DNA of 62,904 bases, filler included, from Dugesia japonica (taxonomy: Eukaryota), in NCBI GenBank assembly GCA_001938525.1. It is 4 parts of 4 records of this genome, joined end to end, with 100 filler letters (N's around TTAATTAATTAA, not from the genome) between each part and the next. Parts side by side here need not be neighbours in the genome. Positions count along the whole stretch, not along the records: positions 37,554 to 62,904 come from MQRL01583123.1; 3 more parts are not named here. One strand, given 5' to 3'. Below are positions 4,520-62,573 of the stretch, in pieces (the first letter of the stretch is position 1; every line of letters begins with the position of its first letter). The notes below the pieces were generated by a model, which saw nothing but the letters and a program-made list of their open reading frames with translations, was not told the origin of the DNA and did no database searches. The translations under genes and the position numbers were made by a program.

Positions 4520-7500
4520 AAATTTACAACCTCGTTTAAAAGTTCTAATCTTAAATGCCATGTTTCACATTCAAAACACCAAAATCGATTACCGTGTAGC
4601 CACGTCCTAATTCCATTAATTTCTATCAAAACTTTATCATCATATGCGATCATTGCAATTTTAAATTGAGAAGTTAATTCTATTTCACGACCCTTTGATT
4701 TTAATCTTAGCATCTTCGAAAATTTTATCATAATCTTTCATTTGTATGTCATTGGCTTGGGCTGAGCTTTTATGTCTTTTATGATAATTAATTAAAAGAT
4801 TTACTACATAATTAAAAGCATAACATTTTTCCCTTATAAAATCACCCTGTGTAATTTCAGCGTTTGGCATTTCATCTTTCATTTGAAAGAGTTCGCTGCC
4901 AAATAGTGTTTTCAACTTGTCCAAATTTTCTTGCCCCCTGATTTCTACAAAGAGTGAATCTGTGTCTGTATAGTGAATTTTATAATTTTCCATTCCAATC
5001 ATTGGAGCCATCTGATTATATACAAANTCATACATTACTTCTTTTGCGTATTCCAAAATAGTAAAACCAACAAATGGAAATTTATTATATTTAAGATTGG
5101 TTTTTTGCATGTGCATTGCTGCTGATTTTCTTGAAAATATTTTAAAATATTTAAATGTTGGTTTTGCTGAAATCATTTGAAAGTCTTTATTACACCCAAA
5201 AAATTCTATAACCAGTCTTTTCCTAGTATCTTCAAGAGTCTTTCCATAAAAGGAATTATTTGAAAGTTTGAAAAAGAAATCGAGAAAGCTATTATTATTT
5301 CTTTTGGCTTCATTTCTATTTTCAATGTTAAAAAAATACATGGTCTTAACCATGGGCTTGTTGGCACTTTGGCTTTATAATAAATTTTTTTCAACTTCAT
5401 GCCTAATTCGAGATATAAATCTAAAGTGCTTCCTTGGACTATGTCATTTTTTTTATCGAATTGAGTAAGTACTAATTTTATATTTTCCTTGGAAAGTTTT
5501 TTATTAAATATTTTTTGGTATGGTGTTAACATATTCTTTTGAATATTTAACCTCTCGGGAGCTAGAGGAAAATAACTCGTTTTCTCATGAATCTCCGGAG
5601 GATACTCCAAATCCACCTCATAGAGGAAATTATAGTCGTCGGTTGATTTTTCATATGTTAGTTCTTCACATTCTATGTAATCTCCTGTGGGAAGAGGTCT
5701 TGTCATACAAGCCGGATATAAACTGTTTTGATCCAAATATTTTAAAAATGTTTCTTCAAAATAATCATCTGGAATTTCTTCTCCTCGTTGTATCATGTTT
5801 AAGAGATCTTCTTTTTGTGCTTTGGTTAATCTCTTGATTGGCGTATTTTTATTAAAAAGAAAAATTTGTCTCTCGCCAGTTGCTGCAGAAACTCCACCGC
5901 GACTTCCTCGTTCATTTTTAAACAATAATCAAAACTTTCTAGTTTTGGATATCTTAACTTAACTCCTATAAATTTCATCCCTGCTACCCAAGTAAGTCCT
6001 GGAGCAGAAAAGCAATAACATGGATCGATTTAATAATATTCCATACAAATTTCTCGAAGATTTTCAAAAAGGTCTGCAAGGATTAAAACATCAAGTTTTA
6101 AGTAGAGAAGCATGTAATCCCATAGTATATTATCAAAATTGTCAAAATCTTCGAGAAATTTGTCATATTCTTCGCTGGTTATATTTTTTTGTTTTAGCCT
6201 ATTGTAAAAATCTTCTTTGTGTGGAATTCTTTGATTTTTAAACGTTCCATTGCTTCTGTAATATTGTGTTCCCTTATAAATGCATAAGGAAATTAAATTT
6301 TTTTTGCTTTTAGGTTGTGTTTCTTTAAATGATGAAAATTATCGTTTTCATTTAAAATTTCCCCCATTTTTTCTATGATGTGGTGGTACACATTCTATAT
6401 GAGTCAAGAAACCTAATTTTTTTAAATGAAAAAGAAATGTATTCCTCATCACTATGTGGTATAATTCCTTTTATATCATCTGGGTGTTTTTCTAAGAGCT
6501 CTCGGAAAAATAAGTGATTGTCATAACCAGACGCGTTGTGAAAATAAAATGAAATAAAGAAATTTTTCTTAATGTTTTTATATTTCTTGTTGCAAAATTC
6601 ATGAGCTGGTCCAATAAATTCCCCGCAAAAAAAGTTATAAACTTCTTCTACATTTCCCCAAAGTGTTTTTTTACAGTAAAAACATTCATCTTTTAAAATT
6701 TTAGGTTGTGGTTTAATTAAATTCATCTCAAGAAGCTCATCTAAATGAAAAACATTTAAATTTTCTAGGTATTCTATAAAATCATTTATCACATTTTCAC
6801 CAAATAATTCTTTATACTCTGTTGGAATAAAATCTTCACGTTTGCTTACAAGATAAACCCCGGCGCAAATTAGTTTTTGTTTTTTATCTTCTATGTTGGT
6901 CCATGCCTCAAAATCAGCATAAACCACAAATGGAATTTCTATCATAAAATTAAAATTCCTAAAAACATGAAATTCATTTGACTCATATTTAATTCCTGTT
7001 GGTTTTTGATGAACACATTCCCTTTGATGTTTCTCAAGTCTTTCTTGGGAGGAATATACATTTAAACAATTTACAAACAAATAATTTTTAATTCCTCGGG
7101 GGCTAATAAATGTGTTTAAGTTTTTACATAGGACATAGTGATTTTTATAAAGTAACAAATTACATTTATTTTCGTTTTGTGGTGCTTTACAAAGAAAATG
7201 AGAAACATTAATTGATTCAGGAGTTTTGTTTGCGTTTTTCGCCCCAAAAACATTAATTTGCCAATTATTTAATTTTTCAAACCTTTTTATATCTTCAATT
7301 TTCGCTGGAAAATTTACACCTGTTAAATTAAATTCGTTTAAATGTTTTTTATAGTTTCTTACTCGTGTTGGATGTTCATATGTATATTTATGTGCTAGAA
7401 TTGAATAAAGAAAACATTTATCATCATCGTTTTCAATGTTGACAATTCCTCTTTTAACAAATGGTAATTTTTGATATGTGGCACCCGCATGTGATTTATA

Positions 7501-8224
7501 AATACCAAGTCTTATTTTAAAATTAAGTATATAATCAAGGTTCCAATTACTTTTATTTTTATCACCATTAATTTGTGTTTCGAAATCATTTACTAATTCT
7601 CGGGTGATGTTTGGAATTTCATATCCTACTGTTATTCTTCTAATGGAGGAGTGAGATGTAAAATTTCTTTCTGCTGTAATATTATTTGTAGTATTTGAAT
7701 ATTTTGCATCCACAACAACATCAACGTAAATTCTTCCAAATCTAAAACATTTTCTAATAATAGTTTCAATCTCGTTTTTATAATTAAAAAATCCGATTTT
7801 AAAAATTCAACATCTCTTCTTAAATCAATTCCAGAATCATCAAGATATTTAATAACATAATCTTCATATTCAGGGCCTGTGAATAACTCATCTATTTTTG
7901 GTGGTACTGGTTTTTCTCCTGGAAGTTCATCAAATAAATCAGCTGCAAAATCCTCTTCATTTTTTTGTGTGGTCTTCCCGCATAATGTTTTTTCGCTTTT
8001 TTCTGTTTGGGAAATTTTATTTTACAAATATAACAATATAACCTCACACAAACATTTGAATTTAAATGTTCAATTAGCGCTTCTTCTGATATAAATCTAT
8101 CCTTACATTTTTCACACAGGTTTTTATAATTTTTTTTGCCGCATGTTTTTATGTGGGTTGAAAGACCCGATTTTGTTTTAAATGTTTTATTACAAATGGT
8201 ACATTTATGTGTTACTGCTTCCAT
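4516..8224 (-). pseudogene. Protein-primed family B DNA polymerase (pPolB) with N-terminal C2H2 fingers and vOTU-like domain; multiple frameshifts
   Basis: C2H2 fingers (7892-8224); NIENDDDKCFLYSILA and KNHYVL; exonuclease YADFE, FHNASGYD, RFLDSY; YLDQNSLYP; KLSNNSFYGK; YTDTDS. Confidence 0.95.
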
Positions 8225-10485: not shown

Positions 10486-10585
10486 NNNNNNNNNNNNNNN
10501 NNNNNNNNNNNNNNNNNNNNNNNNNNNNNTTAATTAATTAANNNNNNNNNNNNNNNNNNNNNNNNNNNNNNNNNNNNNNNNNNNN
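10486..10585. other. Artificial scaffold spacer (N44-TTAATTAATTAA-N44)
   Basis: Six-frame stop linker at 10530-10541 centred in a 100 bp gap; same structure at two other sites. Confidence 0.9.
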
Positions 10586-14494: not shown

Positions 14495-15525
14495 ATGGAA
14501 ACAATATAAACAGACCCAAAAAACCCAGCAGGATTCAAAGGAGTGGAAAAGTTATGGAAAGCAACAAAAATTTCACAAAACCAGACGAAAAAGTGGATGT
14601 CGAACCAGTTAGCATACAGTCTGAACAAACAAATGTTGAAAAGATTCCCAACAAAACCGTATAAAACATATGGGATTGATGACTTATGGCAAATGGATTT
14701 GATGGAAATGATTCCATTTTCAAGAATTAATAAAGGATACAAGTATATTTTAACATGTGTCGATGTATTTAGTAGATTTGAAAGAGCTGTACCTATAAAA
14801 TCAAAATCATCTATCGAAATGGAAGCTGCAATCAAGATAATGTTTAACGATGGTCATCCAGACAATTTGCAAACTGATTTACGATAGGAATTTTTAATTC
14901 AAAAGTGAAGAATATTATTAATCATTTAAAAATTAACTTTTATTCCGTATTTTCACAATACAAAGCGGCATATGTTGAAAGGTTTAATCTAACATTGAAA
15001 AAGTATTTTGTGCATACCGGTAATAAGACATGGATACATGTGTTAACGAAAGTAATCAACAGTTATAATCATACAAGTCACAAGAGATTAAATGGAGCAA
15101 GACCCATTGATGTATCATCTGACAATTGAATGAAATTATGGTTATTGAAACAAAAATCAAAAGTAATTATTAAACCTTAATACAAAGTCGGTGGTCATGT
15201 AAGAATATCAAAGAAATCAGCTTCACCATTCATCAAGAATTTCAATAATAATTGGAGCTATGATGTGTTTCAAATATCAAAAACCAATATCAAGCAGAAT
15301 CCAACCATGTATTTGATAAAATATTATGAAGAAAATATCATTGTAGGAAAATTCTATGAACAGGAATTACAAGTCATTTCTCAACCATCATTATTAAGAA
15401 TAGAAAAGATTAAACGGTCAAAAGGAACTGGTAAATATAAAAAAATATATGTAAAGTGGCATGGTTACGAAAAACCTACTTGGATATCTTCATCTCAATT
15501 AGTTAACAATAAACAGCGTGAATAA
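14495..15525 (+). pseudogene. Polinton retroviral-type (c-) integrase with C-terminal chromo-like domain
   Basis: TDPKNPAGF, DDLWQMDL, YILTCVDVFSRF, LQTD, AAYVERFN, GKFYEQEL, IEKI...YVKWHGY; several stops. Confidence 0.92.
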
Positions 15526-16530
15526 TTTCCATACAATTTTAACTGGTAATAGCTGTCCTAGTATTCATCCGGATAATAATGCTAGTAATTTCATAATTGA
15601 GCTTGAAAACCCTTTTTACTTGAATGGACAATGGGAAGTAGCATTGATGGACTTTACTTTTACATATTCAACCTTTCAATTATATAGCAAATCATACATC
15701 AAATATGTAACAGGTGATGATTAAGAAAGGAATGTAGAAATCATAATCAATAACAAAGAAAAAATATTGATGGTTCATGATNTTGGTTTTGAGGTAATTG
15801 ATAAACGATCATTGTTAATCACATTAAAGCATCATGATTATGTTGTAATATTTAACAATTTAGAAGACACCAAAACATTTGGATTTAATACTTTAAGAAA
15901 TGACATAGATACAGATTCTATCATACAATATCAAGACTTTAAAAAATATGACTCGATTGATGTTATGAAAATAAAATTAGTTTATTTAATAGAAACAGAT
16001 AGATTCATATCTTTACAAAATTAATATTACATATCGAATTTGGATCAATTTAATCGTTTCATTACTAAAATGTGCAAGTATGTTTTCAAAACACTTACTA
16101 TAAATAATGATGAACCATTCCGATTTTCATTATTGGAAAATGTTAAAAGTGTTACTTTCGACAATTTCTTGGCGAAATTATAAGGATTTGACAAATAAAC
16201 ATATACTCGTGATTATAGAAATATAGTCCATACTGAATTTATTGGTATTAAATATCCAAAATTAATCACTAATCTTCATCAAATGTTCATCTATAGTAAT
16301 ATTGTTCAACCTATAATTGTTGGCGATGTTAATTTTCTTTTGTTGAAATCTGTATGGTTGGAGAATTATGATGATGATCAAGTAGCTCAGATAATAGTTA
16401 AGAATCCAATGTATTTACCAGTTGCTACTTCATGTATAAACAATATAAAAATCAATATACGAAGTGATAGTGGTGAATTTAACAACTTTGCTAAAGACTC
16501 ATTTAACTAATTTAACATTTTCGAAAAATA
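15518..16530 (+). pseudogene. Minor capsid protein (penton) with long central insertion
   Basis: NFHTILTGNS...HPDNNASNFIIELENPFYLNGQWEVAL at the N-terminus; MFIYSNIVQPIIVGD...PMYLPV...IKINIRSDSG at the C-terminus. Confidence 0.8.
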
Positions 16531-16531
16531 A

Positions 16532-16726
16532 ATGTCTAATCCCGATATTATTAAACTTTATAGTACTAGTCAAGCTGGTGGTGAATTGCCTTACTTTGTA
16601 AGTAAACAGTTTGGATCTGGATGGTTGCAAACAATTGGTCGATTTGCTTTACCTATTCTTAGACCTATCGGTGCAATTGGAATGAAAACAGCACAGGATG
16701 TAATAAATAATAAAAAAATTAATTAA
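16532..16726 (+). CDS. Small Polinton core/PW-like protein (truncated)
   Basis: YSTSQAGGELPYF..KQFGSGWLQTIGRFALPIL, the Q.GG / Q.G.G motif plus amphipathic helix typical of the small gene following penton. Confidence 0.65.
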   Translation: MSNPDIIKLYSTSQAGGELPYFVSKQFGSGWLQTIGRFALPILRPIGAIGMKTAQDVINNKKIN

Positions 16727-16734
16727 AAAAGAAA

Positions 16735-19700
16735 AAAGCTATAGTTATTGTAAAAAATACTGACGATCAACGTTTCATCTGTAGTATTCTTGCTATACTT
16801 AAACGAGAGGATGTTAACAAAAAACAGAAATTTTGAGGAACAATATAAGAAATATCTAGGAGAACTTATATTTGACCATGCCGACATGTCAATGAGGTTG
16901 TCTAATATTCCAAAGTTTGAAAAGGAAAACCCAGGTCTTTCTATAAAACTCTTGTCATGGAATTCTATTTCTGCTTGTAAAGATAATGATCTTGTAATGA
17001 AGCATCTAAATTTGGATATAATTCATAAAAGTAAGGTAATTCATAAAAGTAAGGGAGGACAAAAATTAATCTTTTATTGCTAGAAAATAAGGATAAGTTT
17101 CATTACACCGCAGTAATGAATTTAGATAGACTGATGAACCGTAGGGTCGGAGATAATTAGATGCGAATCCGATTTACTTGGTGTTCAAATTGCTTGAATA
17201 GGTTTAGGGATAAGACTTCGTTTGAAAAACATGAACCACTTTGTGAAACAATGGTTAAGATTGAGGTTTCTTTTACTCCAGTTATTGATCCCGTTGTTAA
17301 TCTGACTGTTAATTCAGTTAATGATCCGACTGTTGATATAAATAGTAATTCTATTGATTTTAATAAGAAAATAGGGGATGAATACGATGTCTTGAATAAG
17401 TTTTTACAAGAAAACCAAGTTGGCCGTTCTCTTATTCTTGATAAATTGATTGAAGAGACAGACTTACTTAAATATTATCGAGTATTAAAATTAGAGGTTT
17501 CTAATTATAATATAAGAGAAATAATACTGACTGAAAAATTTATTAAAAAATTATTTAATTTAATTAAGGAAATGAAAAATGTAAAAATACAATTTGGTAA
17601 TGAAGTTGAATTTTTTAAGGATGAGGAAATTAAGACGTGTAGGTTTTGAAATAGAGCTGTTCCATTGACCGATGATTTCTTTGATGTAAGCATTAAACAA
17701 TTGAACGAGAAAATAGTTATAAGGTCTGAATTAGGTAGTAGTTGGATCTTAAACCGAATTTTAGAAATTTCTTTTAAATTAACTAAAATAAGTAATATCA
17801 GTAGACTCTTTGGAAGGAGCTGGATCGATACTCTCAAAGATTTAAAAGATAAAAAAGCTATAGTTAACGTTAAGAAAAGTGATGATCTTTGTTTCATATG
17901 TAGTATTCTTGCTATACTTAAACGAGAAAATGTTAACAAAAAACAGAAATTTCGAGGAACAATATAAGAAATATCTAGGAGAACTTATATTTGACCATGT
18001 CGACATGCCAAAAAGGTTGTTTAATATTCCTAAGTTTGAAAAGGAAACCCCAGATCTTTCTATAAATGTCTTGTCTTGAAATTCTGTTTCTGTTGACAAT
18101 AGTGAGGATGATAAGGTTGTAATGAAACACCCTAATTTGGATATAATACATAATAGTAAGGTTAAATTGGACAAAGAATAAATCTTTTATTGCTATAAAA
18201 TAAGGATAAATATCATTACACAGCTGTAATGAATTTAAAAAGACTGATGAACAGTGATATTAAAAATAATGGGACGAGAATTTGATCTACTTGGTATCTA
18301 AATTGCTTGAATGGGTTTATAGATAAGATAGCTTTTAAAAAATATGAACCTCTTTGTGAAAGGATTCAAACTGGTACAACTCTTTATAGATCAAGATGAT
18401 ATAGATATACCTGATGAGAAAGAATTATTATTTAAGGACTACTCTAAGATGATCACTCCTCCTTTCGTAATTTACGCTGATTTTGAATCAGTTTTACCTA
18501 AAGATCCAAAATATTTTCAACGTCATGAACTAATTTCTGCTGGACTTTTATTAGTAAATAATTTTACTAATGAAACTAAGTATTATCAATTCATCGTCTA
18601 TGATTGCATTACCGATTTCTTGCAAATGATTGAGGATTTGACTAAAAACATTTTCCAACTTTATTTTGAGAAAAATAGTAAAAAGTCGATTATAATTACA
18701 CATGATGAGGAAATAAGCTTTAAAAGATCTACGATCTGTTATTTGTGCAAGAAACAAATAATTAATCCAGTTAGAGACCATAATCATTTTACTGGTAAAT
18801 AAATAGAACTTGCTTGTTCCAAATGTAATGTAAGTAGGAAAATAAGGTTTGATTCTAATAATTTAAAGGGGTATGATCTCCATCATATTTTAAAGTATGG
18901 ACTTAGTAACTTTTAGTAACTCATAACTTGGGAGATTTCTTGTATTCCACTAACTATTGAAAACTTCTTGAGTTTGACNGCATATATAGATAAAGTATCA
19001 GTAAAGTTTATAGATAGTTACCAATTTATAAACTCTTCTCTTGATGTCGCCGTTAAGACAATAAATTCAATTCCATTAACATCAAAGGAGTTTAATGATA
19101 GTAGACTTATTAAGACTAAGGGGACTTTTCCTTATAACTTTGCGACTAGTTTAGAAGTTTTAGAAGAAACATTATCATTACCACCAATTTGGGAAGGAGG
19201 TTCTGAGGAAAATTTCTTAAAAGCTGTTGAGATGTGGGAATTTTGCGGTTGTAAGAATCTTTTAGACTATATGATGGTCTATTTGAAACTTGACAATTTT
19301 TTTGGTTGATTTCTTTCAGCAATGTCGAGCTAAATCTTTAGAACATAATAGGTTAGAACTACTTAATTTCTTTGGTTTTCCTGGAATGAGTTGCGCTTCT
19401 GCCTTGGTGACTTTAAAGGAATCCATTGAGCTTTTGACTGAGAATGATATGTACACTTTTTTTGAAGGTGGAATTAGAGGAGGTCTTCCTTTTGTAAATA
19501 AACACTATGTAGCTACAGATAATAATACTTAGCTTTTGTACGAAGATATTAACAATTTATATGGTTGGGCTTTAAGCCGAAAGCTTCCTTATAAGAACTC
19601 TGAATGGATTCATTCTGACTTGGAAAGAATTCTTGTTGATTTTAGGACTTATTACTTAGATTCGTTGTCTTATGGTTATAGTGTTGAAGTTGATATGTTG

Positions 19701-20750
19701 ATTCCTAATAATTTACATAACTATTTAAGTGATTTACCAGTTGCTGCTGAGCAACAATTAGTACCAGGTACAAAATTTTAAAAATTACTACTTGCACATC
19801 ATCCAAAGAAAAACTATGTAATACATTGGAAATTACTTCAATTGTATTTACAAATCGGGGTTGAAATGACTAAAATTCATAGGGCTGTAAAATCTGACCA
19901 AGACTCTATCTTTAAGGTATATGTAAATGGAACCACTGCATTAAGATCTGAAAGTAAAATTGAGTTAGATAAAAATTATTATAAACTACTCAATAATAGT
20001 CTTTACGGTAAGACTGTTGAAAATCTTAAGAAGAGGATGAATCTCCGTCTCTGTAATTATGTAAAGAAGCTTGTGACCTATACTTCTAAACCGAGCTTTA
20101 GGAAAACTTTTAAAATCGATAAGGATCTGATCGCTGTTCAACTTAATAAGGATGTTGTTTGTTAAGATCGTCCGAGTTATATTGGACAATCTGTACTTGA
20201 TTTATCTAAGCTTAGAATGTATCGTCTTCATTATATAGATTTAGAAAAATATCGTAGGGAATAAAATTGTTGTATAAATATTTTTGCGGGCGACACAAAT
20301 AGCTTCTTTCTAGAAGTAAAATATATTAAATTTGAGAAAATGTTATAGTTAATGGTTTAAGATAGGTTGTTAGGCACGTCTAATTATAGTAAAAATCATC
20401 CACTTTTGAATAATGACTTAAATTTGGTTGTAGGTAAATTTAATGACGAGTCCAAAGGCATAAAGTATAAAGAATGGATGTTTCTGAGACCAAAATGTTA
20501 CAGTCCCCTTAGCGAAAAAACATCTATGAAGGCTAAAAGTGTAACATTAAAAGGTACTGTCATAAATCATCAGTCATACCTTGATTGTTTTAATAATAAT
20601 CAAAATGTTTCAGTAAACCTATTAAGAATTTTTAGTAAAGGCCACCTAATATTCAGTTCTAATAATTCTAAAATAGCTCTAACAAACACTAATGACAAAC
20701 GAGTATGGGTAGATAAAAATGTAAGTCTACCATACGGAAATTGTGATATA
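16735..20750 (+). pseudogene. pPolB with duplicated N-terminal vOTU-like/Zn-finger module
   Basis: PFVIYADFES, VRDHNHFTG, NLKGYDLH, FIDSY, TKGTFPY, YLKLD, GIRGG, DINNLYG, KLLNNSLYGK, GDTNS, RPKCY, NDKR. Confidence 0.95.
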
Positions 20751-21059
20751 CCACTTTGTAGTGAAGACAATCAGAATCAAATCAGACAGTGTAAAGGTAA
20801 TGATTTGTTATTTATTAAATTTTAATTAATTTATTTTTACAGTATTTTTAAACAAACCTACTATTGCAAAAAATAGTTAGACATTGGATTTCTTAAATAA
20901 ATTTTAGTTTTAAAAAAATGTATTATCTTTTTTACTTTGTTAATCACTTTATTTTAATGTTCATCGAGTCACACTTCAATATTTCGTGTTTGTTTTTTCA
21001 ATAAAACTTTTTTTGTAAAAAATTTGCTGATTTTAACTGTGTTATTCATAATGAGCATA

Positions 21060-53384: not shown

Positions 53385-53664
53385 ATCATATGGCACTTTC
53401 CCCACACCAATATAGAAATACTTACCTTGTTACTTTACATTCCCTCACCTTTGTCTTGTAATAATCTGACTCTTGGTACACAAAATAACTCAGCGACTTT
53501 TGTACTACTTCCAACTTCTCTGGATTTGCTTCTGGACATTCTTCTGCGTCGATTAATGAATACACCGTTTCCCCGATATCCATGTGATCACAATCATAAG
53601 CTCGGATTGCCGCACTTCGGCCCATTAAGAACATTAATATTAACACCATGAAAATGGATTGCAT
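53385..53664 (-). pseudogene. N-terminal fragment of a chuvirus-like (class III) envelope glycoprotein
   Basis: Signal peptide MQSIFMVLILMFLMGRSAA, then IRAYDC...YSLIDAEEC...VYQESDY...VRECKVTR*VFLYWCG. Confidence 0.75.
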
Positions 53665-53889
53665 ACTGCTGGTTCTTGTGCTGCGATTCGTTTCGGTTCC
53701 GTACTCATCGATATAGTCTTTTAATAATGCATGAACCCGTTCGTTTAATTTGTGACTTGAATTAGTTTTTGGTTTCATCCTTTCGATTATCCCATTCGAC
53801 TCTCCGACAGTTACTAATATCAGCTCGATTTGATCATTTTTTATACCGATTATTGGCAGATTACTCAATTGAAATTTCATTCCTGGCCT

Positions 53890-56800
53890 TCAACGAGCTA
53901 CTGCTATTTGCGTTTGCTTTACCAAATATGCAAATGCCACTAGTAATTTTGGAATTGTCAGGCGATTCGACAATACCCTTTGTACTTCTTTTTCCATCTT
54001 TTCTCGATCCTTGAGGAGTGTATGTTTGGCAACTGGTAATTTGGTTATGATTGGTTCTAATATCGCTGCTAATTGTTTGCTTTCCGTAGACAAAATTGTA
54101 TTTCCGATCCATAGTTTTAAATTTGGATACAGCGCTATTAATATCTGATGTACTCGTTTCTTGGTTGGTAGCGTTTGTGGTTCTAATTTCTCCATTATTT
54201 CCGACGATATCTCAGTCATTTTTTCATCTCTTGTTGGCTTTCGTTTTGTTGTAATACTTGCTGTTGCTCCTTTTTGTTGACCTCTGGGCTTTTTATCCAT
54301 CCATGTCTCCGCATCACGCATGACTTGTTGATGGGTTTCATTATCTGTCGTGTCATCTGTGTTATCCGTTGTCGTTTTCACTTCTTCAAACATTGTGGCT
54401 GGTGGTATTATTTCGTCCGCTACTTCATCTAATTTAACTGATATATCATCGTCCTCCATATCCAAATCCGCTTGGTTTGGATTAAATATTTTCGACTTCT
54501 TTGGTTTATTAGTATTTCCGACTCTGACATTGTCGCTGGTTCCATTTGGGTGATCTCGATTTCTTCATCACTCACACTATCTTCAAGATCCAAAATCTGC
54601 TCGATAATCTCATCCTTAGTGGTATTCTCGGTTGTTGACTCCTTGATTGGTGATTTTCTCGGCCGTCCTCTTGATTTGGCAACTACTTCACTCGTATTAC
54701 TTGGTGTCATTGGTTGTACAAATGATTTTATCGATGTCTGACTTGATCCTAATCCGGATTGTAATTTATTTTTAATTTCCTTGGCTAATTTTCGTCTGAT
54801 CAATCGTTTACTACCTTCCGGTTTGATATACATTTTATTTTCTACCTATTGTCGGATATCCAACGTTCCAATGATATCGTTATTCAATAATTCCATATTG
54901 TTTAATAGTAGTACATATGGCAACTCGTATGGTATTTTAGATTCCATTTGCTCTACTGTCTCATATGCCAAATTCGAGATTCTCGTTTCATGACCATCTG
55001 GTTCTACTATTCTGAAGCTAAATCTAAGCGGTAATACTTCATTTTGTTCGCCTTTTCTCCATCTTGATATCAGCAGTTTGAATTGTTTTGGTCTATCCTT
55101 TGCATTCCTCTTTACATCTGGATATTTCATAGGTCAATGATCTCAACTCCTCAATGGACAAATCACTCTGCAATAATTGATCCGCTATATGCTCCACGCT
55201 GGTTTTGTTTATACTTTTTTCTTGAATTTTTGATATAAAGTGGTCTACTATATCGGCAGAATCTCCACTACACTTTTTCGATTTACCGGACATTACCGCC
55301 ACCATTTCTTGTGATCGACTCAACTCTTNNNNNNNNNNNNNNNNNNNNNNNNNNNNNNNNNNNNNNNNNNNNNNNNNNCCGCCACCATTTCTTGTGATCG
55401 ACTCAACTCTTGATTTGATTTGTATTGTCGATGTAATCTCGGTCTCTGCTGTTTTACCGCTATCGTTTCTCGATTTGCTAATTCACTTTCCTCATTATGT
55501 AGTTGCAATCCCCATGGCAACTTTGGATTGATATTATCGACATAATATCGTATTGTCTTTCTACATAAATTCTCTCTAATTGACTTTAATATATATGGGT
55601 TTTTCTCATTTTCTTCACTTGCGAAAACATAAAAATTCATCATATGACCTGGCCATATGCCAAATCTCTTTATTGGATACTCATCGTGATCCTCTGTGAT
55701 CTCTCCTCCACAATAAACTACAACATACTTTCGTTTGGTAATTGGAGTACTCTCTTTTACTCTCGCCGTTTGTTTATTCAAATGTTGGATAATTTTCTTT
55801 ATTAATTTATCCCCACTTGTCGTCGTTTTAATATCGAAATCTTTACTTGATTCATCCGGAAAATGTACGGTTACCTGCACATTTTGTTTTGATATGCTAT
55901 CTGCATGAGTTATCGTTAACGTATGTATAAGCGTGTACAACGCTTTTCCTCCGATCATACACAATTGATTCAATCTGTTTATTATCTCTTGAAGATTCAA
56001 TTCTGTCATTTGACTATAATTCTCGTAAATTGTTAACGCCATTTTTGCCATAGTCTGTTTCAAACTCTTCCACGGTTCACTCTCACTTTCACCATCTGCA
56101 ATCCACCTGATCTCCTCATCAGTGACGATTCTCAAATATTCCATTTTATCTATTTCGTTTACATACACATTTCTCATTTTTGTTCTAATTCGACTAATTA
56201 ACTGTAATTCAAACTTTTTTGGTTTTCCGTCATCTAATTCCAACATTAATTCAGTAATCTCTCCTGGTCTCAATCGGAACTGACTCACATGTTGATCCCC
56301 TTTATTCAACTTGTTCCTTTGTATAATCATATAATCACACATAAGCCGATACTTCTCAAAGGTTTTCTCTAAAGGTAATTTACTCAATATTGCTAGCAAC
56401 TCACCCACTCTGGTGGTTTGAAGTTTCTCAACTATTTTCGTATGCATGGTCATGCACAAATTATCATCCATCGTAGGATAGTGGATTTTTACCCCAAAAT
56501 CTGATCTAACGGTTGTTGCTACGATCATATCTTGATACTCTTTAATTAATTCAGACCAGTTTCTTCGATGATCCAATAATATATCATAATGATAGTGTGC
56601 ATCCCAAACTAAATTCAGCATCATCCAATAAGTTTGTTTCGGAATTAATTCCTTCCTCTCCAATGTGATACCCACGTATTTGTTTATTGCAGCTAAATTA
56701 TGGTAGTAATCATCATTGCGGTCCTCGTTGGCAGTAGTTGATGTTTCACTCGGCTCATTCACACTTCCTTCTCCCACAGTACTTACTTGTTTACCCCCCT

Positions 56801-58050
56801 TTTTACCTCTATTTATTATTTTACTCGAAAAGTATCTCATCATAAAAACTCTGGCTGGTCCTGGCTGCGTTCTAGACAACTGTTCATCATTAACGTCTGT
56901 AATAATTTTAATTAAAACGCTCGGTATTTCAACTTTTGGTAATTCACTTGGCTGGATTGCCAGTGGTGCCCTCTTTTCTGACAACGGCGCGAGATATTTG
57001 ATTTGGCATTTATTCAACGAAATCATTATATTTTCAGTTGTTCTAAAGTAGGAATGAGGCCAAATTAGTTCGTTATATAAACGCATTCTCCGACTCTCCA
57101 ACAACGTAATTACTATAGTAGTTCCAGGTTTTAGACCATATTCATAAATATGGGCGCCTACATCATTGATGCTAACTACTGACACGGGGGTACAAAACAA
57201 TATAATCGCCTATGGGTTTTGCCCACTCAACCTCTTTCAACGCATTGAGTAAATCTTTTACCGTCGTTGCTTTCAGTTTTAACACTCGTGAGATGTTCCA
57301 CTTGGTCGCCACTGGTACTTTCTTTAAAACCTGATCCATCGTAATGTATGCAGTTCTATCTTCATCCGGTCTCCAGGCTTCCATTGCTTTGATTTTATAA
57401 TCCTCCACGGTTGTATTTTCTAACAATTCTTTCTTATACTCAAGAATTATTGGTCTCCACTTTTGATTGGTCAACGTGTCCATATGTCCTGGTTCCGCTA
57501 ATTCAACCAAATTATTCATTAATTTCCAATAAGCCTTTCCGGTTAATTCATCTTTTAATAATTAAGCATCCTTTATGACTGTTTCTACATAATTATACAC
57601 TCTTGTTTTGTTTCGAATTCTCCTCGTTGTCTTTTTCTTTACCGGTGGTTGACATGGTATCAGTATCACTTGATTTCGAACTTGATTCCGAGTATTGTCG
57701 AATTCTACTTGACGCTCGGATTGTAGGTACACTTTTACTAGCTGATTTAGATTCGTAAAAACTTTCTAGATCAAGGTCTTCTACCGAATTGGCTCTTGAG
57801 TGATTTGGTTCGGTTATGGTATCAAATTCTCCTTGTACGTCGTCGTTAGACGGGAATGAATTGGGTGATTTGGATGCTGAAATTGATAGAGATTGGTCGA
57901 ATTTTCGAGACGGCCTGTTGTAGGAGACCGATCGCTTGATTTTAGCTGGATTGAATCGTTTAATTACAAATGATCTTCTATGTTCGGTGCTTTCTCTAAA
58001 ATTATATCGGGATTCTTGATTATCTATGATTGTTTATTTGGTTGATTCGC
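53890..58050 (-). pseudogene. Long upstream polyprotein region: Ser-rich N-terminus, three ubiquitin-like domains, helical region, AT-hook, acidic/Thr-rich linker
   Basis: Consecutive same-strand frames joined by single frameshifts or stops; Ubl patterns at ~57100-57325, ~55620-55880 and ~54820-55022; KSRGRPRKSP. Confidence 0.65.
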
Positions 58051-58500
58051 AGATTGATTGGTTTATCTCGATTTTTGGGATATTGGAATGTTGATTGTTT
58101 TGGTTTCTGAAATTAAATAATATGGCCCTATGGCTTCTGCACGCATTCAAATANNNNNNNNNNNNNNNNNNNNNNNNNNNNNNNNNNNNNNNNNNNNNNN
58201 NNNNNNNNNNNNNNNNNNNNNNNNNNNNNNNNNNNNNNNNATTACCATACTTTATTTCTATCACTTTAGCAGCGTATTTACGTAATTTACTTTTATTACT
58301 CATTCATTTATTATACATAAGTAACAATTTTATTCGATTATGTCTACTGGAAGCCCCACTTCAATATTTATTGTTCTGGGGCAGCTCCACTCAGATTAGT
58401 GATTCCAATTATAATTTATAAAGGTTACAACTTACAATATTCCCATACTGATTTGTCTGGGCATTTTCAGATGTGCCTTTGACATATTACTCCACTAAAC

Positions 58501-58822
58501 AGAACATTTCCGCCTGCTCTTGGCAATTTGTCTTCCGGACAAATTTCGCAAATTTATCAATACTCAACTTATCTCCCTTTCCTTTTCCTTTGGTAGAACA
58601 CTCCAGCCGGTTCCTGTCAATTTAGCTTCCAAATAAATTTTTTACTAATTGACGATTAATTCAATTCGACTCCTTTTCTCACGTTGGGACAATCCCACCT
58701 GCCCCTGGTAGTTTATCCTCCGGATAACTTTTAATATCAATTAACAATTACTTTATTTTAACTCCACTTTCATTTGGAAACCTTTCCGCCTGTTCCTGGC
58801 AGTTTATTCCATTGATAAACCT
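58501..58822. repeat. Four diverged ~45 bp cores at ~91-94 bp period in the element leader
   Basis: Cores start at ~58501, 58595, 58686 and 58777. Confidence 0.75.
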
Positions 58823-60335: not shown

Positions 60336-60646
60336 CTAGATCCTTCGCGGCATTCCCTTCGAAGGCTCATCCACTAGGTTTCGGTACAACAACCACAGTG
60401 CCCTCAAATTGTTGAACACCACGGCCTTTTTATCCGCATAAATTTTGATAATTTCGGACATCAATCGATTGGCTTGCTGCAAGGCCAACTCTTACTCTTT
60501 TAATTGTTGATATTTGCTACTATGCTCGGTAGCCTGGCTTTTCAGTTGCAGCTCTTCATTTCTTAGCGCCCGGCGCTCCTCTTTCCATTTCTTCTGTAGG
60601 GCTAGAATTTCTTTCGATGGAGTCTTATTATCTTTTATCTGATTCA
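60336..60646 (-). pseudogene. Coiled-coil exon-like frame upstream of the PBS (within the putative 5' LTR)
   Basis: tttcAG acceptor followed by NQIKDNKTPSKEILALQKKWKEERRALRNEELQLKSQ...; one internal stop. Confidence 0.35.
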
Positions 60647-61156
60647 CTGAAATAATCAAAATAGTTTATTTTTACATTAATTATTAAACTAAGTAACAGC
60701 TGAATTATAAATCAAGAAATTATTAAATTATTTCAATTATTTACAGCGTTAAATCTTATACTTCTTATTAATGCTAATACTGAAAATAAAAGTCGATTGT
60801 ATACCCCAGTATTATTCAAATAAAATTTTTTTCACGACCACGACTCAATGATGTTTTCCTGATTCGATAAAAAAAATTGTCCGATGGTTACCCCGTCTCC
60901 TCGTCAATAATCATAACCACAGTGAACTCGTGATGTTTCAATATGCTCTAATTTGCGCATGCATTTCTCATCTTCGTTCTTATTTTTGTTTATTTAATTA
61001 ACGAAAACGTTCTATTTAGCTAACAATTAAAAATTAAAATCATTCAAAGATTGCCTCTGCAATCATCGTGACATACATATCACTTTAATTTTTCATACTA
61101 AAAATGCAAACAAAACAAAACAGCAAAACAACTCTCATTTGACAACGCTACACATT

Positions 61157-61552
61157 TTATTTAGTGTTATTNACAGGAGATTTCGGGATGGAACCGCTCA
61201 GGCCCATCAAATCCCGAATAATCGAGACTTCTTCTTCTTCCGCTTGCGACTTCAGGGTATTTTTCTCAGTTGCACCACTCTCTACAGCAGCTCCAGGCAA
61301 TTGGGTCTCTTCAATGACATCTTCCGCATTACTCTCTTCGAGGGTCGTCATCAGTCGATCTCGTTGCGACGTGAGTAGCTTATTATTCGCCTCGAGTATG
61401 GTAACCCGCAAGTTGGCTACCTCGAGATCCGCCCTNNNNNNNNNNNNNNNNNNNNNNNNNNNNNNNNNNNNNNNNNNNNNNNNNNCTACCTCGAGATCCG
61501 CCCTCAAATCATCTGCCTCTTCTTTCCGGGCTATCTTCTCGTCACGGATCAT
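61157..61552 (-). CDS. Coiled-coil ORF (within the putative 5' LTR region)
   Basis: LRADLEVANLRVTILEANNKLLTSQRDRLMTTLEE heptads; GC level like the giant element. Confidence 0.4.
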   Translation of the reverse strand: MIRDEKIARKEEADDLRADLEVXXXXXXXXXXXXXXXXXRADLEVANLRVTILEANNKLLTSQRDRLMTTLEESNAEDVIEETQLPGAAVESGATEKNTLKSQAEEEEVSIIRDLMGLSGSIPKSPXNNTK

Positions 61553-62573
61553 TGTCTGGACCTCCGACCATTCAATATAGTAACAACCGTTAGTGTCGAT
61601 GTATGGCCATATATATAGCGTGGTCTTTTCGAATTTCTTCTGCCTTTTGCCATCTAGTAATTATAATCATATTTATTAATTTACTCTACATACAATAACG
61701 ATTAAAATACAATAAAATTAGATTTTTTGAACCTCCCATGATTTACACGATTTCATCGGCCTACGGCCTATCATCATTTCCCACGTCTCATAACGCGAAC
61801 CAGAGAAGATACCCGCTGGTAATAGGTATCTTTTTTCGTTCCCGCTATCGTTCAATACTGCTGGTTATTCCCTACTCATTAGTAAACAGTTGCATTACGA
61901 TTTATTTTGTACGAAAAATGGATATTAATAATTAAAACACATATGTTGATTAAAAGAAAATAATCACATAAAATAAATAATAATAAATAAATCAATAAGA
62001 ATAATGGATAATGTTTTTAATTATTTATTAAATATTNNNNNNNNNNNNNNNNNNNNNNNNNNNNNNNNNNNNNNNNNNNNNNNNNNTAATAATAAATAAA
62101 TCAATAAGAATAATGGATAATGTTTTTAATTATTTATTAAATATTCATATGACTTTTGACCAAACAAAAAATGATTTTCCCACTCAAAATATAATAAACC
62201 AAACAATAATCCCATCGGGGAATCAGAAAANNNNNNNNNNNNNNNNNNNNNNNTTGAAATCTGACAAAACCTAATTCCGATCTACAATTCTCGGCTTCAC
62301 CTGCACCCCTCCATGCGTGAACGACACCCAGCGAATTCCTCTGAATTCCCGTGATTTCTCAATTCATACTTCTTAAGCCACATTACGAAATTTGTCTCAA
62401 CCTTACATCTTCATCTCATTTTTAAATCAAAAGGATTCTGGTGGCGGCACTCAGACATGATAATTTTATTTCATTTAACAACAAACAAAATTTGATTTTA
62501 ATTTAAAAATACTACAATAAATAAATAAACAAAATTTACTCTGTGGTAGTTGTCGATAAAATGTTCTGGAAGC

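Follow-up and report, generated by a model that had tools for sequence, protein, structure and literature searches.

A dead copy of a Burro-like Ty3/Gypsy element with the GAG-ENV-POL order very probably lies (at a probability of roughly 0.85) on the minus strand of a 62,904-nucleotide stretch of the Dugesia japonica genome (GenBank assembly GCA_001938525.1). This whole stretch, which consists of four parts joined end to end, is called the window below, and all coordinates are positions along it; the part from 37,554 to 62,904 comes from MQRL01583123.1 and contains the locus in question. The locus is a divergent, decayed member of a known Gypsy lineage in which env precedes pol, and no new capture of an env gene is shown by it.

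An env fragment of the gB type

On the minus strand, 53664-53389 reads as a hydrophobic segment followed by the motifs AYDC (53601-53590), SLIDAEEC (53559-53536), YQESDY (53478-53461), VRECKV (53448-53431), and YWCG (53412-53401). The hydrophobic segment, whose best 13-residue Kyte-Doolittle mean is 2.67, is the putative core of an internal signal peptide or signal-anchor of the env protein (53602..53664); it aligns with the equivalent segment in relatives, and the coverage of the Pfam profile described below starts at profile position 4. Cleavage would take place just before AYDC. A first-pass annotation, made from the sequence alone, had read the same series of motifs after an internal signal. 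All of these motifs are present, but the spacer after AYDC is 10 residues rather than 9, and an in-frame TAA before YWCG had been missed.

The fragment matches positions 4-87 of the 653 positions of PF24664 (Monjiviricetes_fusion) with 45.1 bits and an E value of 4.9e-12, where the curated cut-off is 27 bits. This score was read with an X at the stop codon, and the natural open frame alone reaches 34.1 bits, which is also above the cut-off. Against a profile of 10 relatives the fragment scores 94.6 bits while the best of 500 shuffles scores 6.8; this control is partly circular, since the relatives were found with the same query, whereas the Pfam test is not. A word-based search of the 92-aa fragment against longer proteins (17 candidates) gave no match; the HMMER search succeeded. 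Judging from its sequence, the glycoprotein N-terminus at 53389-53664 is real, and Pfam, phmmer, alignment, and tblastn end points mark 53389..53601 as the pseudogenised N-terminal part of a mature class III fusion glycoprotein of the gB type (Monjiviricetes/chuvirus-like).

A gB-like class III fold is predicted for the full-length relative P0146, while the window fragment itself is known from sequence. The P0146 model (pLDDT 69.9, pTM 0.48) matches herpesvirus gB (HSV-1 gB) in the PDB with an E value of 2e-12. Among viral models, it matches chuvirus and xinmovirus glycoproteins, of which the Tacheng tick virus 4 G gives an E value of 5e-37, at an identity of at most 22%. As the global TM-scores reach only 0.2-0.46, the folds agree at the level of domains. 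When PDB sequences were searched with the env alignment, the 60 matches listed were all integrase or Gag-Pol chains; the search is uninformative on env because whole polyproteins were in the alignment. Thus, the first-pass annotation was right in taking the fragment for the N-terminal part of a class III fusion glycoprotein that is chuvirus-like and of the gB type, as both the profile search and the P0146 fold matches agree with it. What the locus has in common with the class III fusogens of Chuviridae and other Monjiviricetes (G) and of herpesviruses (gB) is the PF24664 match and the fold matches of its relative. In contrast to such viruses, no viral polymerase or nucleoprotein was found near the env fragment.

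Relatives of the env fragment and of the reverse transcriptase

A phmmer search with the env fragment against 1.84 billion representatives gave 38 matches at E 0.001 or better, and 35 of them also match PF24664. The identity to the fragment is 32-51% over 62-67 columns in the 20 of the 38 matches that were aligned; the scoring covered all 38. Eleven matches are longer than 700 aa. In these predicted proteins, from which alone the architecture of the relatives is taken, a protease lies downstream of env in the same ORF in eight cases (P0126, P0127, P0130, P0132, P0137, P0139, P0150, and P0153), while pol lies upstream of env in none of the eleven. RT-RH-IN continues after the protease in four of the eight. 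Repeated proteases, with two or three motifs, are found in P0016, P0127, P0130, P0132, and P0137. In five of the eight relatives scanned, env is directly preceded by a weak Bcl-2 match below the threshold, and one of the eight has a ubiquitin match. By eye, C2H2-like zinc-finger motifs are seen beside the repeated proteases of P0137, P0130, and P0016, which a strict pattern missed. The env N-termini of P0128 and P0124 are fused to host domains (MRP-L47; FAD-oxidase C-terminal) in the predicted proteins, and these fusions are probably gene-prediction chimeras.

A separate search with the RT/RNase H region found P0017 among the closest matches (53% identity), and this protein carries env positions 248-627, in frame before PR-RT-RH-IN. 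The named matches of the window RT are Gypsy-type, and it groups with Gypsy-type proteins. An RT/RH tree was made of 56 sequences, namely the window and 55 proteins chosen from 119 that were eligible (numbers 1-22, then every third, plus the env-bearing ones); it contains no named Burro or Smed RT and no BEL/Pao reference. The window falls in a 12-member clade with a FastTree support of 0.979, which contains all five env-bearing proteins, and it is the outermost branch of this clade. Six of the 11 other members have no env in the predicted protein, and several of these six start near the protease. Within the window, the gB-type env lies upstream of pol on the same strand, across a scaffold gap (52508-52572), and hence the env-RT link rests on scaffolding. 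Since the nearest relatives of the fragment and of the RT belong to one lineage, both sides of this gap point to the same lineage.

The first-pass annotation had proposed an independent env capture, or recombination with an env-bearing element, and had compared the locus with BEL/Pao elements of insects. It is very unlikely that an env-less Gypsy element captured a chuvirus glycoprotein here, or picked one up from a BEL/Pao (Anakin-type) element. The glycoprotein family does include chuvirus glycoproteins, which are the top viral structural matches of the P0146 model, and the available texts on such elements describe the GAG-ENV-POL elements as not monophyletic (PMC13524379) and report no clear Gypsy capture in insects (Dezordi et al., PMC10084718). 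However, the top matches of the fragment with readable context are retroelement polyproteins, 34-51% identical over the fragment (in a library of proteins without names), the identity of P0146 to viral glycoproteins is low, and the window RT already groups with env-bearing elements. The independent-capture view is therefore largely refuted. The mosquito BEL/Pao elements are the wrong reference group. Moreover, the order in which env precedes pol is published (PMC6431247 and, as far as its available text goes, PMC13524379), so that the premise of novelty fails.

Decay of the env gene

The in-frame TAA (53422-53424) separates ECKVTR from VFLYWCG and leaves only 59 mature codons open. As it occupies one aligned column without any indel, it fits a nonsense change in a decaying gene. 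Upstream of the fragment, the env frame is open for 75 codons up to a TGA at 53890-53892, and 224 more codons are open beyond it. Thus, the first-pass statement that the fragment is in frame with upstream coding sequence is true for 75 codons, where the TGA breaks the frame. On the other side, the env similarity ends and the frame of the protease ORF takes over at a junction within 53389..53404 (about 53392-53401 by tblastn end points), and the env fragment is not in frame with the downstream protease. The distance from the CG motif to the first protease is about 95 codons in the window versus 619-849 residues in seven relatives whose protease was found by motif search. Accordingly, at least about 520 codons (about 520-570) are missing, including the transmembrane anchor. 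In the window copy the ectodomain is incomplete, the transmembrane segment is absent, and about 85% of the env length is gone. When the window was cut into 2100 pieces in six frames, none of them turned out to be another part of env, the next best reaching E 0.9. The first-pass annotation had noticed the truncation correctly, although its figure of about 70 mature residues overlooks the stop codon. An internal deletion would be the simplest cause of the loss; this is put conditionally because the sequence after the junction matches the post-transmembrane env tail of relatives at E 1.6.

The env stop overlaps a perfect splice-donor consensus, AG/GTAAGT, at 53427-53420. If this were a functional donor, the truncation would be programmed and a short secreted N-terminus would be the functional product. 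Such a reading is scarcely credible. The donor octamer occurs once in the window, where 1.13 occurrences are expected by chance, and at least one occurrence was found in 66 of 100 shuffles. Moreover, the env homology runs in frame past the donor site up to the CG motif, and the window has no env remainder for the donor to splice to. The splice-donor idea was dropped in view of this chance-level frequency.

Anatomy of the element

The approximate extent of the element by composition is 46800..58800 on the minus strand, where the GC content is 31-43% and the coding strand is A-rich throughout, as compared with 21-26% GC outside. Both composition and strand are uniform over 46.8-58.8 kb. The minus-strand order is as follows: ORFs of unknown nature (57561-54432), a stretch in the env frame, the env fragment, the frame change, protease 1 with CCHC knuckles, the scaffold gap, protease 2, a linker, RT, RNase H, integrase, and three further ORFs.

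An ORF of 129 codons (57175..57561) lies at the position expected of the Gag capsid; it has no Pfam family, no named atlas match, and no match to a four-sequence gag profile. The next ORF (55323..57209) has 629 codons and no atlas match above 0.76. Inside it, 55581-55910 is hit by five ubiquitin-like or Ras-binding Pfam families, all below the cut-off (E 0.011-0.093), and this region may be a ubiquitin-like (beta-grasp) domain. No lead from the atlas searches with these two ORFs reached 0.9. A 95-codon ORF at 54849-55133 (minus strand) has a ubiquitin-like look by eye and no Pfam match. The coding stretch that precedes the signal in the env frame (53665..54564), which is broken by the TGA, occupies the position of the Bcl-2-like domain in relatives. 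Its resemblance to this domain is weak; it has no Bcl-2 Pfam match, the W-x5-GW motif is absent, and with my own profile it gave an E value of 0.18 as the second best of the 2100 pieces. Small home-made profiles of gag, ubiquitin-like, and Bcl-2-like domains gave no significant match in the window.

Aspartic protease 1 (52851..53180, minus strand, with DTG at 53114) was detected by Pfam gag-asp_proteas with an E value of 1.3e-8, and its best stored match is P0137 of the env-pol lineage (33% identity). Four CX2CX4HX4C zinc knuckles (52578..52805) are located downstream of protease 1 in the same open frame. A run of 65 N (52508..52572) separates this contig with env, protease 1, and the knuckles from the contig with protease 2 and RT, and no flank duplication was found at this gap. 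Aspartic protease 2 (52150..52506, minus strand, with DTG at 52425; Pfam RVP E 2.4e-9) is 28% identical to protease 1. The first-pass annotation was right in placing env 5′ of a protease in a Gypsy element, but this second protease past the gap had been overlooked. The segment linking protease 2 and RT (51582..52091) has no Pfam family but is homologous to its counterpart in relatives, with 24-29% identity to P0013, P0016, P0126, and P0137 in tblastn. RT, RNase H, and integrase follow in the Ty3/Gypsy order (48971..51556, minus strand; Pfam RVT_1 8e-34, RT_RNaseH 4e-38, Integrase_H2C2 5e-18, and rve 3e-14). Thus, the element has the pol order PR-RT-RH-IN with a Gypsy-type RT. Several in-frame stops interrupt pol, and its frame shifts twice on the way from protease 2 to RT. 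With env stopped and truncated and pol broken, the copy can make neither the fusogen nor Pol.

Three post-integrase ORFs (46771..48837, minus strand), which are Cys-rich, charged, and hydrophobic, have no significant Pfam family. They may be the counterpart of a long post-integrase extension in clade members P0013-P0016, P0018, P0137, and P0150, in which signal-like and transmembrane-like segments were seen by eye and no convincing Pfam family was found. A tblastn comparison of the window ORFs with these extensions gave no similarity. No LTR pair was found for the element; the stretch has no LTR-sized direct repeat, and its sole listed direct repeat is a 33-bp gap-flank duplicate. The lack of an LTR pair is expected of a truncated copy.

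Knuckles between two proteases

The CCHC knuckles follow protease 1 in the window, whereas they precede env in all four env-bearing relatives in which knuckles and a protease motif occur together. Of the 18 stored proteins that combine the two motifs, 17 have the knuckles only upstream, and the exception, P0069, is outside the env clade. A search for longer homologs of the PR1-CCHC ORF gave none at E 1e-5 or better, which is weak evidence. Nothing relevant to an env-PR-4xCCHC-PR-RT-RH-IN layout was among the results listed by a literature search, although the figures of PMC13524379 and Repbase entries may show it. This layout may represent genuine variation at the level of families, or else a chimera. 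In the former case, the copy would come from an undescribed, early-branching family of the env-before-pol lineage in which the nucleocapsid knuckles have moved from Gag to behind env, between two proteases; I regard this as a tentative proposal that is rather doubtful at present. If it is true, the layout would tie RNA packaging to the Pol side of a membrane-spanning polyprotein and uncouple it from the capsid.

As for a chimera, the env fragment and either the PR1-CCHC part or the PR2-RT part might derive from different env-before-pol elements, joined at about 53400 or across the N gap through recombination, nested insertion, or mis-assembly. It would agree with this that the similarity breaks off abruptly where the frame changes near 53400, that knuckles unusually follow a protease, that a 65-N gap is present in a gap-rich draft assembly, and that no LTRs were found. 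I nevertheless consider a chimera unlikely, since the best or near-best matches of env, PR1, and RT all fall in one lineage, and strand and composition are uniform. Even if the locus is chimeric, both partners are of a known kind.

Comparison with known elements

A dead Burro-like copy remains the preferred reading of the locus. Against it speak the scaffold gap between env and RT, the position of the knuckles, the poor match of the sequence after the junction to the env tail, the non-significant Gag, Bcl-2-like, and ubiquitin-like domains, the lack of LTRs, and the outermost place of the window in an RT clade with several env-less members. In the available text of Arkhipova and Yushenova (PMC6431247), the env of planarian Burro lies between a Bcl-2-like domain and the protease and matches mononegavirus fusion glycoproteins, Burro is called the first case of an in-frame env between gag and pol, and it is said to have a dUTPase-like domain between PR and RT. 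The window element is similar to the giant planarian elements Burro and GYPSM1 described there in that a mononegavirus-related env lies in frame between an upstream accessory region and the protease. It also shares with Burro a pol in the order of Gypsy, an additional segment that separates PR from RT, and a long upstream coding region. On the other hand, the window remnant is about 12 kb long and broken, and no LTR was found, while Burro is described as 25-30 kb in size, its LTRs being long and its single ORF running without interruption for about 4,900 aa. The CCHC knuckles of Burro are in the N-terminal Gag, unlike those of the window element with its two proteases. Of the Bcl-2, Ubi/SUMO, BIR, and MATH domains described for Burro, the window has sub-threshold Bcl-2-like and ubiquitin-like matches at most, and its env is truncated. 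For these reasons the window element is not filed as Burro proper; it is likened to Burro1-4 and GYPSM1 by their published description.

According to the available text of Chary and Hayashi (PMC13524379), such elements of Nematoda, Bryozoa, and Platyhelminthes all have a gB-type ENV in the GAG-ENV-POL order, for which Sacco et al. 2022 is cited in the case of nematodes. Chuvirus-like glycoproteins beside Gypsy pol are also reported there for arthropods, and the role of such env proteins in infectivity is stated to remain unclear. The window element resembles these GAG-ENV-POL "ancient errantiviruses" (HSV/gB-type ENV, including Smed_errantivirus_1-6) in the Ty3/Gypsy pol, the gB-type env upstream of it, and the spacing of the YQESD..K.REC...CG motif. 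When the window env is set against the Smed_errantivirus_1 row of that paper, 16 of 29 ungapped columns match by eye (about 55% identity), which points to a separate family within one lineage. The elements described in PMC13524379 are all intact whereas the window copy is broken, and its main text makes no mention of zinc knuckles or repeated proteases, both of which are present in the window. Troyka (PMC12440569) was rejected as a match because it is described as having no env and a different zinc finger.

In Anakin elements, env is downstream of the integrase. Anakin is described as a BEL/Pao element with a chuvirus glycoprotein in mosquitoes (Dezordi et al., PMC7642597). It thus has the same broad glycoprotein family inside an LTR retroelement, but its pol is BEL/Pao while that of the window is Gypsy.

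Other features of the window

The plus strand at 44919-46827 encodes two domains, a capsid domain with a double jelly roll (Pfam E 7e-7) and a PLA2 domain of the parvovirus type (E 1.5e-9), in genes that I take to be Polinton/Maverick-like. The 3′ side of the Gypsy element adjoins the PLA2 ORF at about 46.79 kb, and no LTR was found there. Part of a DNA polymerase B of the protein-primed type (E 5e-6) and the core of an integrase (E 2.5e-6) were found in the regions 4688-7806 (minus strand) and 14510-20822 (plus strand), which are presumably further Polinton-like remnants. At 37999-40251 (plus strand) lies another decayed Gypsy element, in which protease and RT are found. A 195-nt repeat is present at 37554-37748 and 60554-60748 in inverted orientation with 97% identity. 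The N runs at 10486-10585, 27569-27668, and 37454-37553 have a 12-base AT linker between them, and the two flanks of the gaps at 55296-55411 and 61978-62145 repeat each other, the assembly being a gap-rich draft. A coiled-coil-like ORF of 167 codons at 61160-61660 (minus strand) has an internal repeat across an N gap and no significant family match.

Implications

In intact members of this lineage, a gB-type env is inherited within one long polyprotein. As the predicted proteins of relatives show, gag and accessory domains come first, followed by the parts of env (internal signal, class III ectodomain, and transmembrane segment), and then by at least one protease, RT, RNase H, and integrase. 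Considering this anatomy and the biology of class III fusogens, the internal signal may direct the ectodomain into the ER, after which the chain may be led back by the transmembrane segment to the cytosol, where the protease and Pol would remain. The proteases would release Pol, so that an enveloped particle carrying the fusogen could be formed without a separate env transcript. The window copy, with a nonsense codon and a large loss in env and with frameshifts and stops in pol, is very probably a relic of such an element. The layout of protease, CCHC knuckles, and protease is the sole part that is worth specialist attention, provided that intact copies confirm it. The locus adds one divergent, decayed element to the Gypsy lineage with env before pol, and it bears on how often the retrotransposons of invertebrates were enveloped and possibly infectious.
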